Of a DNA stretch of 64,000 bases, positions 5,163 through 32,394 are shown one piece after another; the first letter of the stretch is position 1; each line of letters opens with the position of its first letter. The translations under genes were made by a program, and so were the position numbers. This stretch comes from Pseudomonadales bacterium (GTDB lineage Bacteria > Pseudomonadota > Gammaproteobacteria > Pseudomonadales > IMCC2047). Under the pieces are notes generated by a model. It ran no database searches. It saw only the letters and a program-made list of their open reading frames with translations, and was not told the origin of the DNA. The stretch spans positions 1,604 through 65,603 of the forward strand of contig JAWKZQ010000015.1 in NCBI GenBank assembly GCA_041395865.1, read 5' to 3'.

Positions 5163-7103
5163 TCAAGGCGAAACGCTGGCCAACAACGGCGGCATTGGGC
5201 AATCCAGGCTCAGCGCCACCGCCCTGATCAATTCGATTTCTTCGGGCGTGATCTTGCCGTCCTGGGCCGCACACCGGCACAGGGCTTTCAATAAGCGCGG
5301 TTTTTGCAAAGGTTGTAACCGGTTGAGCACCTGGGTCGCCCGGGAAAGGTCCTTAAGACGGTAGTCAGATCGGGGGACAAAGCGCAAACGCCGCAAGCCA
5401 AGCGATGCCGACGCCTCAGAAAAGCTCTGCACAGCGGCGGCCTCGTCTCCAGGCGCGCCCGCATCGGCGACAGCAGAGAGCAAAAGGCCGCAGGCTTTTC
5501 CAACCAGCTTCAAGGAGCGGATCGGAGCGAATTCAGCAGGATTATATGACGCGGGCTCGAGCTGCTGTAACAGCACCCGATACAGAGCCCACTCATGAAG
5601 GTCAATTCGCTGATCGGCCTGCATCAGGGCAACCAGATTGACCCGGAAACGTTGTAGCTGAGGCTCGGATAGCTGTTTAAGCGCCGGGATACAGAGTTCC
5701 AGTAACGGTAGTCGATAGCGGGCCTCCCTCTCCAGGCTTTTATCCAGCGTTTGAGCCAACCCATAGACCACGGAATCGGCCTCTTCCCTGAGCTGTTGCC
5801 ACTGTTTTTCGCGTACGGCTTCATCCGTATCCAACAGCAGACAGTAAACCAGGGCGCGTGCTCCGTAGGGTTCGGCCGCTGACGCCAGCAAGGTTTCCGG
5901 CAGGGACGCCAGCAGCGCATGGGCATAGGCCACGTGCCTGTCATCGGTAACGCCAACACTATCCAGCAGCGCCTGTCCGGCACTGTCGGCAGCCATACGC
6001 CCGGCCGCAGCGCTGAACCCGGAAATCGGTTCGGCAACAGCCTCTGAACGCGAGCGCCTTGACGCCGCAGCAGGCTGTGAAATAACGGCATAACGCCCGT
6101 TCCAGTGCGGATCAATGCGTCGTATACGCTCATCGAGCGGTGGGTGGGTAGCCATCAAGTTGCCAAAAAAAGGCTTCACGGCCTGCCCGAAGAACATATG
6201 GCTGATTTCAGTGGCCTCCGGATGCTCGACCGAAGAACCCGCGCTGAAACCGCCAATTTTCTTTAAAGCCCCGGCGATACCGTCCGGGTTCCGGGTAAAT
6301 TGCACCGCGGAGGAATCCGCCAGGAATTCACGTTGCCGACTGACGGCTGCCTTGATCCAGTTCCCGAAAAAAGTACCCGCATAACCAATTACCATCAAAC
6401 CCGCGCCCAGCGCCAGGAAGGGCAATGCCCCATTATTTTTACTGGATCGGCTGCGGTAACCTGAGCGGGATACACTGCGCAACAGGAAATGTCCGATCAG
6501 CCCCAGGACGAGGATACCGTGCAATACACCGATCAGGCGGATATTAAGGCGCATATCGCCATTGAAAATATGACTGAATTCATGGGCAATCACGCCCTGC
6601 AGTTCGTCCCGGCTAAGCTGTTGAATGGAGCCCCGCGTTACGCCTATCACTGCATCGGAGGGCTTATAACCGGCTGCGAAGGCGTTAATGCCCGCTTCAT
6701 CGATAAGATATACCGGCGGCACAGGCGTACCCGAAGCAATGGCCATTTCCTGCACCACATTGAGCAACTTACGCTCGTCGGCATCATCGGTATTGAGGTT
6801 CAGCAGTCGCCCACCCATGGCTTCAGCCACCACCTTGCCGCCACCGGACAGCTGGGTCAGTTTGTAAACGCTGGCCAGCAGCACAACAAACACTATCACC
6901 GCCGCAACCTTGAAAAGCGTGCTCCAGCTGAAGTATTGCAGGGCAAGCTGCCACTCCTGCATCGGCACACCGTTCATCCAGGCCAGGACAGCCACCACCA
7001 GTAACTGGGTAAGGCCGATCAGCAGGAGTACCGCAATACTGAAAAGCACCACCAGGCGGCCAGTCTTGCGACGCGCCTGGTCCTGGTGTTCAAAGAAATT
7101 CAT
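5163..7103 (-). CDS. M48-family zinc metallopeptidase with long C-terminal domain
   Basis: HEFSHI (HExxH) after N-terminal transmembrane helices. It lies directly downstream of lemA, the usual LemA-M48 pairing. Confidence 0.85.
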   Translation of the reverse strand: MNFFEHQDQARRKTGRLVVLFSIAVLLLIGLTQLLVVAVLAWMNGVPMQEWQLALQYFSWSTLFKVAAVIVFVVLLASVYKLTQLSGGGKVVAEAMGGRLLNLNTDDADERKLLNVVQEMAIASGTPVPPVYLIDEAGINAFAAGYKPSDAVIGVTRGSIQQLSRDELQGVIAHEFSHIFNGDMRLNIRLIGVLHGILVLGLIGHFLLRSVSRSGYRSRSSKNNGALPFLALGAGLMVIGYAGTFFGNWIKAAVSRQREFLADSSAVQFTRNPDGIAGALKKIGGFSAGSSVEHPEATEISHMFFGQAVKPFFGNLMATHPPLDERIRRIDPHWNGRYAVISQPAAASRRSRSEAVAEPISGFSAAAGRMAADSAGQALLDSVGVTDDRHVAYAHALLASLPETLLASAAEPYGARALVYCLLLDTDEAVREKQWQQLREEADSVVYGLAQTLDKSLEREARYRLPLLELCIPALKQLSEPQLQRFRVNLVALMQADQRIDLHEWALYRVLLQQLEPASYNPAEFAPIRSLKLVGKACGLLLSAVADAGAPGDEAAAVQSFSEASASLGLRRLRFVPRSDYRLKDLSRATQVLNRLQPLQKPRLLKALCRCAAQDGKITPEEIELIRAVALSLDCPMPPLLASVSP

Positions 7104-27105: not shown

Positions 27106-27597
27106 TCAGGGGGTAAATTCAATCCGGCTGGATTCCTGAACGCCCGGGTCGCAGAAACTAATTTCCACATCCTTCTCGTCACAAAAACGCAACACCGAGG
27201 CAGCAACTTTCGGCTGACTGGAGCGCGCATACCACGTAGATCCCTGGCTTTGCGGCTCACCGTCCAAATAACGCACGACATATCGCAACTGGCCGTCCTC
27301 GTACCAGGCAACCTCCTGGCCGTGCTTCAGGCCATCTTTAAAGCTCACCTGTAACCTTTGCAGGCCATCTTCAAAGTAACTCACCGCATCTCCGGTAAAA
27401 GGCTGAGGCTGCCCGGGGGCGTAGCGTAAATGGCCTCGAACTTCGAGGCTTTCCAGGCTCATAACCTGCTCATCGCTTACACGTGACTGCTCATCCGCCA
27501 GCGCTTCCTGCGCCAAGGCTGGCCCTGAGGCAACCAGACAGGCCACCACGGCAAGCCAAATAAAGGTTAAGTTGTTACATTGAAAAATCTGTTTCAT
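27106..27597 (-). CDS. Exported MORN-repeat-variant (YwqK-like) protein
   Basis: Signal peptide ...ASGPALA plus repeats such as YFEDGLQRLQVSFKDGLKHGQEVAWYEDGQLRYVVRYLDGEP. Confidence 0.6.
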   Translation of the reverse strand: MKQIFQCNNLTFIWLAVVACLVASGPALAQEALADEQSRVSDEQVMSLESLEVRGHLRYAPGQPQPFTGDAVSYFEDGLQRLQVSFKDGLKHGQEVAWYEDGQLRYVVRYLDGEPQSQGSTWYARSSQPKVAASVLRFCDEKDVEISFCDPGVQESSRIEFTP

Positions 27598-27704: not shown

Positions 27705-28055
27705 ATGTCCCGATCTTCACAACTCGTCTATTCCACTGACCAGGGCCGTATTTGCCCCGACTGCCGCCAACCCAAAACAGCCTGCTGCTGTAAAACAGCG
27801 GCAGCTCCTGTCAGCGATGGTCCAATCCGAATCCGGCGCCAAACCAAAGGTCGCAAAGGCAAAGGCGTGACCCTCATTGAAGGCATCCCCCTTGCCGATG
27901 ACGATCTCAAGGCACTGGCCAAACAGCTGAAAAAGGCCTGTGGAAGCGGTGGAACCGTCAAGAACGGGGTAATAGAAATCCAGGGCGACTACCGTGAACA
28001 GGCACTGGCCTACCTCGTCAAGCAGGGCTACGAAGCCAAGCTTGCGGGAGGTTAA
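27705..28055 (+). CDS. yciH: SUI1/eIF1-family translation initiation factor YciH
   Basis: [13 protein letters not shown]...[21 protein letters not shown] is the SUI1 core. ACAGGAG SD. Confidence 0.88.
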
Positions 28056-28688
28056 GCCGCTACCTGCAGCTCCTGGCCCTGTGCCTCCCAGATTCCTGCA
28101 AATACTTTTTCCGAAGTAGCTCCTGTCAAAGCTTCTCGCTCAGCTTCCGGAATAAACGCAATTGACAGCAGGTGCTCCAGGTGTGAAAAGCCCTTTTCAA
28201 CGGGCAGATCAAGATGGTCATAAATTTTATAGCTGTACCCTAAACCTGAATGGACACGCTTATAAAGTCTCGCGCGCTTCAGGCCCGTCACATTAAAGGC
28301 ATAGTGATAGCCCAAACTCGCACAGCCTCTATCGCCACACCGCCCGGAATATTTCCGTTTTGCGGTATTCAGGCCGTAGCACCAGGCGTTCATGCTGGCA
28401 GTAGGCGCCAGCGGCAAATCCAACCCTCGAGGAAGCACCTTGTTAAGATTCAGTCCCTGCTCTCCAGTGGCGTCAGGGTTTGGTTAAACAGCGAACACCC
28501 GCACTTCTGACACCACCGAGCACAAACATCCCCATCTCTCACGATCAGGATATTTCCCGTCTGATCATAAATATCTTCCCGGCTGTTGAAGGCATCGAAG
28601 TTTGAGTTCTTTCCGAAAACATTTTCCCTTAACCAGTAATACTGTTCCAGCAAATATCCTGCTTGCTGAACTCAAAGGTAATGGACAC
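28052..28688 (-). pseudogene. Hypothetical Cys-rich protein gene, readable as one 212-codon frame only after restoring one base at about 28651-28653 (T run) and one at about 28470-28478 (A/C runs)
   Basis: AGGAG, 7 nt, then GTG at 28688 opens a 19-codon frame. The 67-aa (28450-28653) and 128-aa (28052-28438) track ORFs each lie one frame further on, and the junctions fall on homopolymers. No family recognised. Confidence 0.35.
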
Positions 28689-28807
28689 CTCGTTTCTCCT
28701 GTTGCGCATTTTGTATTCAGGGAACGGGCTAAAGCGATAAAGCCCAAAATTAAATTTCTTCGAAGGGTTCAATACAAAATACGCCAATCCCTTTTTTATT
28801 ATTACTT

Positions 28808-28820
28808 TTTCAATAAGTTA
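28808..28820. promoter_or_regulatory. IHF-like site TTTCAATAAGTTA
   Basis: Matches WATCAANNNNTTR at 8 of 9 defined positions. It lies between the GlrR-type sites and the GTG at 28688. Confidence 0.3.
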
Positions 28821-28872
28821 CACAAAAACTACAAAAAAGCTGAGACACATCCCCCTGAAAACCGGGGAAAAA

Positions 28873-28890
28873 CGTCTCCATTTAGAGACA
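28873..28890. promoter_or_regulatory. GlrR/QseF-type site CGTC-N10-GACA (proximal)
   Basis: CGTCTCCATTTAGAGACA has inverted arms GTCTC/GAGAC and matches 7 of 8 positions of TGTCN10GACA. Confidence 0.5.
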
Positions 28891-28936
28891 CATTTTTGGT
28901 AACCAATAAAAGTCCTTTTAAATCATATGGTTAGCA

Positions 28937-28954
28937 TGTCTCTTTTTGGAAACA
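28937..28954. promoter_or_regulatory. GlrR/QseF-type site TGTC-N10-AACA (middle, imperfect)
   Basis: TGTCTCTTTTTGGAAACA matches 7 of 8 positions of TGTCN10GACA. Confidence 0.35.
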
Positions 28955-29032
28955 AAGTTATTAGCCAGCCTACAGCTGAAAGGGGGAATGGAGGAAAGGC
29001 CCGCCCTGCCTGGTTTGCAAAGCCGCTACAAA

Positions 29033-29050
29033 TGTCTCCATATAGAGACA
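29033..29050. promoter_or_regulatory. GlrR/QseF-type site TGTC-N10-GACA (distal, perfect)
   Basis: TGTCTCCATATAGAGACA, with 7-bp perfect arms ATGTCTC/GAGACAT, lies 12 bp past the glrR-like stop codon. Confidence 0.55.
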
Positions 29051-29061
29051 TCCGTGCCGTT

Positions 29062-30414
29062 TTAAGGTTTGAACTGGTCAGGCCGCAAATCGTGGCGCTG
29101 CAGAAGTTTATAGAAATCAGTCCGGTTACGCTGGGCCAGCTTGGCAGCCCGGGAAACATTTCCTTCCGTAAGCCGAAGCACCTTCACCAGGTAGTCACGT
29201 TCAAAATGGTGCCGAGCCTCATTGAAGGAAGGCATAACGCCTGACTCGTTATCGATGGCGTCACGCACCAACGCCTCTGGAATTAAGCTGGTATGCGCCA
29301 GTGCAACAATCTGCTGCACGGCGTTTTCGAGTTGACGTACGTTGCCGGGCCAGGAAGCCCCGACAAGCAGATTCATCGCCTCGGGACTAAAGGCAGAGAC
29401 TTTGCTGTAATGCCCCTTCTGGCTTTGTTTAAGGAAATGATTGGCAAGCAGCGGTATATCCTCGCGTCGCTCGCTTAAATCAGGCAATTTCAGGTTAACT
29501 ACATTGAGGCGGTAATACAGGTCTTCGCGAAACTGGCCGTTCTTCATTTCCTGCTCAAGATCCCGGTGCGTCGCCGAGATAATCCTGACATCCACAGGGT
29601 AGCTCTGCGTGCTTCCCACCGGGCGTACCTGGCGCTCCTGCAGGACTCGCAACAGCTTGACCTGTAGCGGCACCGGCATATCGCCAATTTCATCCAAAAA
29701 CAAGGTGCCTCCGTCGGCCGCCCTTAACAACCCCAGGTGATCGGTACTTGCGCCCGTAAAAGCACCCTTTACATGCCCAAACAGCTCCGACTCCAGAAGC
29801 GGCTCTGGCAGCGCACCACAATTGATCGGTATAAAGGGCTGATCGTTGCGCGCACTGCCCCTGTGTATGGCCTGCGCCAGCAACTCTTTACCCGTACCGC
29901 TGGCACCGGTAATCAACAGACTGACATCCGATTCGGCAACGCGCTTGGCGGTTTGCAGCAGCCTCTCCATGCTTTCGCTACGAGTCAGGATATGGGAACA
30001 CCAGGCCGGTTCGTCCGTATCCAGCTTGGGACGACTGGTTTGAGCAATGGCCTGCTCGATTTGAGTAAACAGTTCATCCTTGTCGATGGGCTTGGTCAGA
30101 AAGCCAAACACCCCTTTCTGGGTTGCCGCTACCGCATCAGAAATCGAACCCTGGGCGGTAATGATAATAACCGGCAAACCCGGATGATGCTGCTGGATTT
30201 GATCAAACAGCTCTATGCCGTCCATTCCATCCATGCGCAGGTCGCTCACCACCAGGTCGATGTCATGGACTTTCAATTCCCGAAGCGCTTCCTGGCCGTC
30301 ATTGGCCGTTCTCACGCGATAATTCTGGGCCTCCATGCGCATCACCAGCAACTTCTTGAGACTGGGATCGTCATCCACTAAAAGAACCTGTGGTGCAAAT
30401 TCGGCCATTACCAT
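29062..30414 (-). CDS. glrR: sigma54-dependent response regulator, GlrR/QseF-like (NtrC family)
   Basis: Receiver domain (VLLVDDD...D), AAA+ Walker A GASGTGKE, sigma54-contact loop GAFTGA, C-terminal HTH. It is the last gene of a kinase-lipoprotein-regulator trio. ATG at 30414 or 30408. Confidence 0.85.
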
Positions 30415-30415
30415 A

Positions 30416-30964
30416 TCACTCTTTGGGCTGGTCAGGGTCGCTCTGTAAATCCGCATCCTGAGCCTGTTCTTTACGGGAACTCATGTTTTGCTCAAGATGC
30501 GTAATCGCCTGGATTTTCTCCTCCAGCACGCGCTGCATGGCCTCACTTTCTTCCAGCTGTAAAGCCACCTTGCTGTAGCGCGCCTCCCAGTTAATCATGC
30601 TTTGATTATAACGCAGTAATAATTTTACCAGTCCCTTCAGGTCCTGCCCAAGATCCTGTGAAGCAAGCACATGCCTGAATGCGTCCCGGGCGCGAATCCA
30701 CCCCGCCCTTTCCGACAGCTGCTGATTCAAGAGGCCGTAACGAAACCACTGCAGGCTGGTTTTTTCGTCATCGCTGATCTTATCCAGGCGCTGCTGCGCC
30801 TGCTGGGGGGTTAACGCCATATAGAGATCGGCAATACGCAGCCAGTAATGGCGCTGTTCAACCGTCAAAGCGGGTTGGCGATCCCAACCTTCATAGTAGG
30901 AGGTCTGCCAGTATTGGCACCCTGTACAGACCAACACCATCGCAACAATCGCGATCTTTTTCAT
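30416..30964 (-). CDS. qseG: QseG/YfhG-like lipoprotein of the two-component module
   Basis: Lipobox LVCTGC. HYWLRIADL, EARYSKV and NMSSRKEQ align with remembered E. coli YfhG blocks (LYWLRAMD, RQRYSKL, QLSTRK). ATGA overlap with the kinase gene. Confidence 0.65.
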   Translation of the reverse strand: MKKIAIVAMVLVCTGCQYWQTSYYEGWDRQPALTVEQRHYWLRIADLYMALTPQQAQQRLDKISDDEKTSLQWFRYGLLNQQLSERAGWIRARDAFRHVLASQDLGQDLKGLVKLLLRYNQSMINWEARYSKVALQLEESEAMQRVLEEKIQAITHLEQNMSSRKEQAQDADLQSDPDQPKE

Positions 30965-32394
30965 ATCCCGTTATTCTCCAATGTTGGACAGGTAATCCGG
31001 AAACACACCGGTAACTCAGGGTGCTGTGAAAGGGTCAATGTCCCACCATGCGCCAGTATGCATTCACGCGCAACACTGAGTCCGATACCCGACCCCTTTA
31101 TAGGCCCTGTACGGCTGTTAACCCCTTGGTAAAAGGGCTCGAAAATCTTTTTCCACTCATCCTTCGGAATCGCCTTCCCTGAATTAGCCACCTCCATGAC
31201 CAGCGCTTCATCCTGTTGATGCCAGCCGATATCAATCCGGCCCTTCTCAGGGGCATAGTTGACCGCATTAGAAAGCAAATTATCCAGCACAGTGCGGAAC
31301 TTTGCTTCATCCAGTGGCCAGCTCTCAACATCTCCCTCACAATCAATTTGCAGCTGTTTTTGCTCGATGCTGATCTGGTGCGTCGACATCAGCTCCTGCC
31401 AAACCGTGTGCAAGGAGAGCGGTTGCACATCCAACTGCTGATTATGCACAACCTGATTGTAATCCAGCAGGTTCTCGATAAGTCGCTGCAACTCGCGGCT
31501 GTTATCGCGGATGATATCAACAACTTCGGACTGTTTGGCCTGCAACTCGCCCGCCACCCCTTCCGCCAGGAGATCGGCGCCTTCGCGCAAGCTTGCCAAC
31601 GGCGTTTTCAATTCGTGCGACATGTGCCGAAGGAACTGCAACTTCTGCTGCTCAAGTTCATCCAGGCGTTTTCGCAGCCATTCCAGCTCGTTACCCAGCA
31701 ACTGCATCTCCGCCGGGCCTGAAATCTGAATGGGCTGACTCATATCACCACTGCCCAATTGCCGGATCTCCCGGCCTATCTGTTTTACCGGAGTGGCTAT
31801 CCAGTAAATCAATAACAGGGAAAAGATCAGCGTCAAGACCGCCAACAACGCGACCATCAACATCAGGGAACGCTGGATATCCTCCGCATTACGGCTCAAC
31901 TCTCCCAACTGCGCATCAACGTAGGCCTGCACCTGCTGGCGGAAAGCATTGGCGGCAGCGCTCAATTCGTCAAAGCGCGGCAATGCCGCACTGATTTCAT
32001 CACTGGCTTGGGGAATTGCCTGTAAGCCCTGGTCAAGCTGTAACCACTGTTGATAAAGAGCGCTCCTGGATTCATGATCGATTGCCGTCAACGTCTCATT
32101 GATCTGAACCAATGCCGCCTGCAACTGTTTCCTTTCCCTTACAAACAATTCCAGCAGATCCGGGTCTCCCAGCGCGACAAACTGACGGGCACGTCGCTCA
32201 AGATCCAGCAAATTGGTTTCAAAGAACTGACTACTGCGGGTAAGGGAAATGGTATGCTGACTGGCTTTCTGATTTTGGCTGGCCAGCTCGTCAAGGGTCT
32301 GAACCGTATAAAAAATCGCTACACACAGGGGCGCTACCACGGTAATCAGGCCGAATAGCATCAACTGCAGGATTGATCGAGGGCGCCATAGCAT
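30961..32394 (-). CDS. glrK: Sensor histidine kinase, GlrK/QseE-like
   Basis: Two transmembrane helices plus HAMP, H-box MSHELKTPL, HATPase N/G boxes. 477 aa (E. coli GlrK is about 475 aa). Confidence 0.8.
   Translation of the reverse strand: MLWRPRSILQLMLFGLITVVAPLCVAIFYTVQTLDELASQNQKASQHTISLTRSSQFFETNLLDLERRARQFVALGDPDLLELFVRERKQLQAALVQINETLTAIDHESRSALYQQWLQLDQGLQAIPQASDEISAALPRFDELSAAANAFRQQVQAYVDAQLGELSRNAEDIQRSLMLMVALLAVLTLIFSLLLIYWIATPVKQIGREIRQLGSGDMSQPIQISGPAEMQLLGNELEWLRKRLDELEQQKLQFLRHMSHELKTPLASLREGADLLAEGVAGELQAKQSEVVDIIRDNSRELQRLIENLLDYNQVVHNQQLDVQPLSLHTVWQELMSTHQISIEQKQLQIDCEGDVESWPLDEAKFRTVLDNLLSNAVNYAPEKGRIDIGWHQQDEALVMEVANSGKAIPKDEWKKIFEPFYQGVNSRTGPIKGSGIGLSVARECILAHGGTLTLSQHPELPVCFRITCPTLENNGI

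Follow-up and report, generated by a model that had tools for sequence, protein, structure and literature searches.

The 64,000-nucleotide stretch analysed here (the window; positions 1,604 to 65,603 of contig JAWKZQ010000015.1, assembly GCA_041395865.1, from a Pseudomonadales bacterium of the IMCC2047 lineage) carries, in minus-strand order, yfgM, bamB, der, a sensor kinase gene, a lipoprotein gene, a glrR/qseF-like gene for a sigma-54 activator, a gap of 373 bp and an open reading frame (ORF) with a GTG start codon, beyond which lies a convergent SUI1 gene. Three palindromic GlrR-type sites, two sites resembling those of integration host factor (IHF) and the remnant of a sigma-54 promoter were identified in the gap (Table 1). 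On the basis of sequence comparison, we estimate a probability of roughly 80% that the gap is a GlrR/IHF/sigma-54 control region of the Escherichia coli glmY type, which would drive the next minus-strand gene, predicted to encode a FeeM-like N-acyltransferase.

Architecture of the gap and its conservation

All sequences of the three palindromes and of the one IHF-like site listed in the original prediction were found in place, and the centre-to-centre spacing of the palindromes, 96 and 64 bp, was reproduced, as were the two anchors of the gap, i.e. the glrR stop codon (29062-29064) and the GTG start codon (28688-28686, minus strand). The loose motif TGTC-N10-GACA is common, with 27 matches at ≤1 mismatch in the window against 18.9 expected. 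The longer form TGTCTC-N6-GAGACA, at ≤2 mismatches, matched exactly three times in the 64 kb, and these matches are the three gap sites, all inside 178 bp and with 0, 1 and 1 mismatches; by our own calculation, ~0.14 matches would be expected by chance in the window at ≤1 mismatch. The IHF-like sites, identified purely by sequence match to the WATCARNNNNTTR consensus, flank the proximal activator site.

Table 1. Features of the glrR-like locus and of the adjoining gap; positions are those of the window.
Feature	Position	Strand	Basis
Distal GlrR-type site TGTCTCCATATAGAGACA, equivalent of activator binding site (ABS) 1	29033-29050		motif search, 0 mismatches
Middle GlrR-type site TGTCTCTTTTTGGAAACA, ABS2 equivalent	28937-28954		motif search, 1 mismatch
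Proximal GlrR-type site CGTCTCCATTTAGAGACA, ABS3 equivalent	28873-28890		motif search, 1 mismatch
Upstream IHF-like site AATCATATGGTTA	28921-28933	+	1 mismatch to WATCARNNNNTTR; absent from the original prediction
Promoter-proximal IHF-like site TTTCAATAAGTTA	28808-28820	+	1 mismatch to WATCARNNNNTTR
Sigma-54 promoter remnant TGGC--GTATTTTGTA	28786-28773	-	alignment to same-species contigs; absent from the original prediction
Predicted 5' leader, ~72-76 nt, with AGGAGA Shine-Dalgarno sequence	28689-28762	-	start predicted from promoter position
FeeM-like GNAT acyltransferase gene, GTG start	28052-28688	-	three-frame translation, alignment to L013-15; frameshifts absent from the original prediction
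Block with all window-specific indels, 515 bp	28331-28846		14 events, ~5-fold substitution excess
glrR/qseF-like sigma-54 activator gene, 448 aa	29062-30408	-	NCBIfam, E. coli comparison
qseG/yfhG-like small lipoprotein gene, 182 aa	30416-30964	-	N-terminal signal peptide ending in Cys
glrK/qseE-like sensor histidine kinase gene, 477 aa, HAMP-HisKA-HATPase	30961-32394	-	Pfam on identical L013 gene

For comparison, loci of GlrR homologues with 60-100% identity (designated by L numbers) were fetched from metagenomes and metagenome-assembled genomes, and these relatives include IMCC2047-like "Pseudomonadales", Motiliproteus and Parahaliea. In all 13 lineages, the kinase gene, the lipoprotein gene and glrR were retained in this order, and past a gap of 295-579 bp they are followed on the same strand by an intact ORF of 211-229 aa; this linkage persisted in L019, L020 (Motiliproteus) and L037 (Parahaliea), whose outer flanks are wholly different. 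Within the gap of each relative lay a sigma-54 promoter together with two or three GlrR-type sites; multiple TGTC-N10-GACA sites are located >100 bp ahead of the start site in the window and are kept in the 13 relatives. Conservation of the palindromes beside glrR-like genes, on which the original prediction had been staked, was thus observed in register in 13 related lineages.

When the loci were anchored on the promoter TGGC, the centre of the proximal site lay 95-96 bp from the -24 GG in 11 lineages and 97 bp from it in the window. The middle site followed 64-65 bp above the proximal one (159-161 bp from the GG in relatives), and the distal site, a perfect TGTC-N10-GACA in most relatives, was placed 255-267 bp from the -24 GG. 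The two IHF-like sites were found on the same strand in 13 of the 15 family loci (≤1 mismatch), the promoter-proximal one at -32/-33 and the upstream one at -145 to -147 from TGGC. An unanchored MAFFT alignment of nine gaps returned the same elements as conserved islands, i.e. the sites, the IHF boxes, the promoter and the Shine-Dalgarno/GTG region, with the remainder being variable.

Since the palindromes are inverted repeats, and the distal one begins 12 nt past the glrR stop codon, they might be read as generic repeats, or as RNA hairpins or terminators that form the 3' end of the glrKR operon, instead of protein sites; a terminator scan in fact flagged 28874-28889, but on the plus (antisense) strand. 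No T-run follows the palindromes on the sense strand, and what is conserved within them is the outer TGTC/GACA half-sites and the exact length of 18 bp, whereas the centres are variable and A/T-rich. They also hold fixed distances to the sigma-54 promoter and the IHF boxes across lineages, and the motif is the same as the experimentally defined GlrR site (PMC3045617), which makes the hairpin or repeat explanation very improbable.

Another alternative is that the module is real, yet bound by a sigma-54 activator other than the adjacent GlrR-like protein. That protein scores below the equivalog cutoff of the NCBIfam GlrR model NF011695 (678 vs 763 bits). However, the runner-up model, NtrC, reaches 426 bits, the protein shares 61% full-length identity with E. 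coli GlrR, and its C-terminal helix-turn-helix is near-identical to the E. coli sequence RNRTEFYKLLSRH, so that a conserved recognition helix stands next to a motif identical to that of E. coli GlrR. The module co-occurs with glrR in the 13 lineages despite changed flanks, while FeeM-like homologues located away from glrR (P0145, P0146/L035 and L033) have neither sites nor promoter. Binding by a different activator is accordingly given only slightly more weight than the hairpin explanation, and the adjacent GlrR-like protein is predicted to occupy the sites. The same distant family members, lacking glrR, sites and promoter, led us to reject the GlrR link as a trait of the entire FeeM-like family.

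The sigma-54 promoter and the damaged window copy

In the window, the sigma-54 box reads TTGGC--GTATTTTGTA, with GT at -12 and a -24 box that lacks two nucleotides (AC). The three contigs of the same species (L013-15) have TGGCACG(C/T)ATTTTGTA, correctly spaced and likewise with GT at -12, and the L013-type sequence is TGGCACGTATTTTGTA with an intact ORF of 214 aa. Among the other relatives the promoter conforms to TGGCAYG-N4-T(C/A/T)GC(A/T), e.g. TGGCACGGCTTTCGCA in L017 and L024, TGGCATGAATTTCGCT in L016, TGGACCGGTTTTTGCT in L019, and TGGCACGGCTTTCGCT in L037 (Parahaliea). The rule of -24 GG and -12 GC with 10-nt spacing was fully satisfied in 12 non-conspecific relatives. In L020 (Motiliproteus), a second sigma-54-like box, TGGCATAGTTTTTGTA, was observed at 6757-6772, 40 nt downstream of the first.

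The caveat of the original prediction, that the gap holds no properly spaced -24/-12 pair, was confirmed by motif search; no GG-N10-GC can be found in the gap because the -24 box is two bases short. The candidates proposed in its stead did not stand. The nearest -24/-12 candidate, TGGGCTTTATCGC at 28746-28734, was rejected due to its position in the leader, with the conserved promoter located 40 nt upstream. A sigma-70-like pair was rejected as well, as its "-35" is the sigma-54 -12 region, the promoter scan of the gap made no sigma-70-type call, and its conservation is limited to the window's own species, with none in other clades.

The -12 dinucleotide is GT in the window (28775-28774, minus strand) and in L013-L015, and GC in all other clades. 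The promoter of the window's species may be weakened or regulated differently even when otherwise intact.

The ORF of the window is affected in addition to the promoter. According to three-frame translation, the GTG frame collapses after 19 codons and carries ~10 frameshifting indels; with these and a -24 box 2 nt too short, the window copy as written cannot work. In an alignment of 11.3 kb of the window to the three conspecific contigs, 68 window-specific substitutions were spread evenly, and the 23 indel columns, representing 14 events, all fell within the damage block, which extends from the promoter through the leader and takes in the 5' two-thirds of the ORF. Over its final 280 bp, the ORF is identical to that of the relatives. 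A further 20.4 kb of flank (30081-50508) showed 1-3 gap openings (2-4 gap columns) against each of the three contigs. The defect is local, because the ~31 kb of flanks are almost without indels, and general sequencing noise was rejected as the cause of the frameshifts.

The damage is probably a local low-quality stretch of the assembly, unpolished or patched. An artefact is favoured over natural decay because the ratio of indels to substitutions is ~1 (14 events vs ~17), which at ~99% identity far exceeds neutral decay, because the edges of the block are sharp, and because both gene and promoter are intact in four independent conspecific metagenome assemblies. A genuine inactivated allele, i.e. 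a strain that has lost its GlrR output gene through a promoter lesion and frameshifts, is the less likely explanation, although all 14 events and the ~5-fold substitution excess coincide exactly with the promoter plus the ORF's 5' two-thirds, regulators and flanks are clean, and the species already has an atypical GT at -12. A "missing" -24/-12 element can stem from a local sequence defect, and a few relatives suffice to recover one.

The predicted transcript and its putative acyltransferase product

The original prediction had left two targets open for the enhancer, an unrecognised GlmY/GlmZ-like small RNA (sRNA) or a sigma-54-dependent mRNA. Its core inference, an enhancer of a direct, leftward target of the adjacent GlrKR-like system with an mRNA favoured over an sRNA, is supported in the mRNA version by the architecture conserved in 13 lineages. 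An sRNA placed between promoter and GTG, with the ORF being incidental, would be in keeping with a cis-architecture that is nearly that of glmY, and with Halomonadaceae, where the sequence behind a GlrR-type promoter located upstream of glrK appears to be non-coding for ~430-450 nt and closes with a terminator. The Rfam search suggested alongside the prediction was run, however, and returned no GlmY or GlmZ, even at E≤10 for the window region and E≤0.1 for six relatives; no further Rfam family was matched in the gap of the window or of these relatives. The distance from promoter to start codon varies among the relatives (51-185 nt), with no shared sequence or structure, and no terminator was found in the leaders of the window and relatives. 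The ORF directly downstream is always linked and is conserved at the protein level (64% mean column identity across 15 sequences). A GlmY/GlmZ-type sRNA gene was therefore rejected, and an sRNA of this kind at the locus is highly improbable; comparison of the sequences supports an mRNA as the output of the control region.

The leader of L020 (Motiliproteus) is unusually long, ~185 nt, and was predicted to be strongly structured (-64 kcal/mol). Outside the gap, an RsmY-like Rfam match was obtained at 27430-27522 of the window (minus strand) and at L013:7893-7985, with 27.9 bits against a gathering threshold of 57 and E ~1e-3. It was judged to be probably false because it lies inside a conserved coding sequence of 163 aa (27106-27597).

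The start codon of the FeeM-like gene was GTG in 13 of 14 loci and TTG in the remaining one (L034), and this conserved non-ATG start suggests a deliberately low level of translation. Against the Pfam FeeM model PF21926 (gathering threshold 27 bits), the products scored 33.9 (L019), 26.7 (L020), 17.5 (L013) and 14.4 bits (L017), and L017 scored 21.6 bits against PF13444. When 1.84 billion representative proteins were searched with a profile, 692 clusters were returned at E≤1e-3. In a sample of the wider family (n=46), 29 members matched FeeM (E≤1e-3), 24 PF13444, and 18 TIGR03694.

The AlphaFold2 model (predicted local distance difference test score, pLDDT, 84.5; predicted template modelling score, pTM, 0.84) has a GNAT fold. 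Its best PDB matches by Foldseek, with probability 1.0, were small GNAT proteins, the coenzyme A-dependent N-acyl-homoserine lactone (AHL) synthases BjaI and RpaI, LasI, and FeeM (2g0b). The residues found invariant in the alignment include Y17, R21, D42, G58-G59-R61, E76 and R143, a set which we take to resemble the LuxI/FeeM signature. From the modelled fold and these similarities we conclude that the ORF product is a putative N-acyltransferase of the FeeM/AHL-synthase-like group. By analogy, the likely product would be an N-acylated amino acid or amine, serving as a lipid or signal.

Several observations weigh against the reading of the gap as a GlrR/IHF/sigma-54 control region for an acyltransferase gene. 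In the window itself the ORF is broken, the -24 box is short and the promoter fails the spacing test, and even the intact promoters of its species (L013-15) have GT in place of the near-universal GC at -12. The spacing of the proximal site deviates in the two most distant lineages, Parahaliea (87 bp) and L034 (107 bp). As to the product, the closest orthologue of the window (17.5 bits) falls under the Pfam FeeM threshold, NCBIfam has no model for the GlrR-linked FeeM-like orthologues, and the Foldseek TM-scores, only ~0.5-0.6, are too low for assigning substrate and product.

The regulatory system and its known counterparts

Upstream of the gap, the gene order and the best-scoring activator model point to a cognate GlrK/QseG/GlrR system. 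The kinase gene occupies the position of E. coli qseE; no GlrK-specific NCBIfam match was among the 25 best matches listed for its product. The assignment of QseG is weak, with a Pfam YfhG match of E=0.041, and the lipoprotein gene fills the slot between kinase and regulator as qseG does in E. coli. The window activator is 100% identical to the database homologue P0001. Mechanical ORF calling gave a longer glrR of 464 aa (with an additional 30409-30456, minus strand), which begins 16 codons ahead of the start in all database homologues and would reach 41 nt into the lipoprotein gene. A scan of the genome contigs with the GlrR query returned distant paralogues only, and megablast detected no match between the locus and E. 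coli genomes.

At E. coli glmY, three TGTCN10GACA motifs located >100 bp upstream are bound by GlrR; ABS1 is the least important of them, and ABS3 is flanked by two IHF sites (PMC3045617). In the glmY promoter as extracted by us, the distances of the ABS centres to the GG of TGGCACAGTTACTGCA are 196, 163 and 100 bp, and the IHF-like sites lie at -150 and -31. Both regions thus have three TGTC-N10-GACA sites with two IHF sites flanking the proximal one, a sigma-54 promoter ~95-100 bp below the proximal site, 63-65 bp between the middle and proximal sites, and adjoining glrK-qseG-glrR genes, and the published architecture also fits the looser conservation of the distal site in the family. The differences concern position (downstream of glrR here, upstream of glrK for glmY), product (enzyme mRNA here, sRNA there), the distance between distal and middle sites (96-170 bp here, 33 bp in E. 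coli), the overlapping sigma-70 promoter, which is unsupported here, and the host, a marine non-enteric gammaproteobacterium.

A protein-coding target of this regulator has been described in E. coli, where the sigma-54 promoter of rpoE is activated by QseF/GlrR from upstream activating sequences (PMC6075780). GlrR targets therefore need not be sRNAs, and the target there is a sigma factor gene not adjoining the regulator genes, whereas the one here is an acyltransferase gene beside glrR.

Regarding the product, the N-acyl amino acid synthase FeeM (PDB 2g0b, PF21926) shares the GNAT/AHL-synthase-like fold, and 2g0b is among the Foldseek matches. The two differ in that identity is ~10%, the protein of the window clade remains under the Pfam threshold, and a fee-type gene cluster is absent. 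The acyltransferases of TIGR03694, associated with PEP-CTERM and exosortase, belong to the same broad group, as reflected in the wider-family matches (18/46), but the GlrR-linked orthologues had no match to TIGR03694 at E≤0.01 and no exosortase or PEP-CTERM genes were found nearby. Exosortase systems are reportedly likewise governed by a sigma-54 two-component pair, PrsK/PrsR, as Haft and co-workers are said to have noted in 2006.

A similar element was observed in the glmY position, upstream of glrK, in Halomonas beimenensis (L021:2185-2850) and Larsenimonas suaedae (L038:2190-2845), and the Halomonadaceae GlrR loci are without a FeeM-like ORF. In it, an IHF-like block and GlrR-type sites accompany a sigma-54 promoter (TGGCACGAAGTTGGCA and TGGCACGTTTTTGGCA), after which ~430-450 nt without a called gene lead to a conserved motif, ACCCTTCAGTTCCCTGCGTA, and a strong intrinsic terminator. 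Rfam returned no match in this stretch, which may be an undescribed candidate GlrR-dependent sRNA.

In the mechanism that we propose, the GlrK-like kinase, with the QseG-like lipoprotein as its partner, would phosphorylate GlrR, which would bind the three palindromes. IHF would bend the DNA by binding on either side of the proximal palindrome, and GlrR could then contact the sigma-54 (RpoN) RNA polymerase ~95 bp downstream and open the promoter. The expected transcript would be monocistronic, an mRNA whose leader is short and unconserved and which encodes a GNAT-fold N-acyltransferase of ~212 aa that would belong to the group of FeeM, exosortase-associated acyltransferases and AHL-synthase-like enzymes.

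GlrKR/QseEF has been studied almost solely in enterics, where its direct targets are glmY, glmZ and rpoE, and we know of no GlmY or GlmZ outside Enterobacterales. An mRNA target is not new in kind, because GlrR has the protein-coding target rpoE in E. coli. What is new is a FeeM-like acyltransferase as a predicted GlrR target, the tight linkage of its gene with glrR in several lineages outside the enterics, and a promoter geometry near-identical to that of glmY. In the full-text literature searched, no link between GlrR/QseF and such an enzyme was found, nor a description of GlrR/QseF in these lineages.

As a tentative and rather speculative extension, GlrK/QseG/GlrR may be wired directly to a dedicated FeeM/AHL-synthase-like N-acyltransferase outside Enterobacterales, with an N-acyl amino acid as the output, and the glmY-type promoter may be an ancient cassette placed before different outputs. 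If this were true, the cassette ABS-ABS-IHF-ABS-IHF-sigma54 would serve an acyltransferase here, an unrecognised ~440-nt RNA upstream of glrK in Halomonadaceae, and glmY/glmZ in enterics, and the output of the envelope-associated GlrKR system would be a membrane aminolipid or a diffusible signal. In marine gammaproteobacterial lineages such as the IMCC2047-like group, Motiliproteus and Parahaliea, the linked target offers a handle on the role of GlrKR where GlmY and GlmZ are absent, and the orphan subfamily of FeeM-like acyltransferases would gain both a regulator and a physiological context, the cell envelope.

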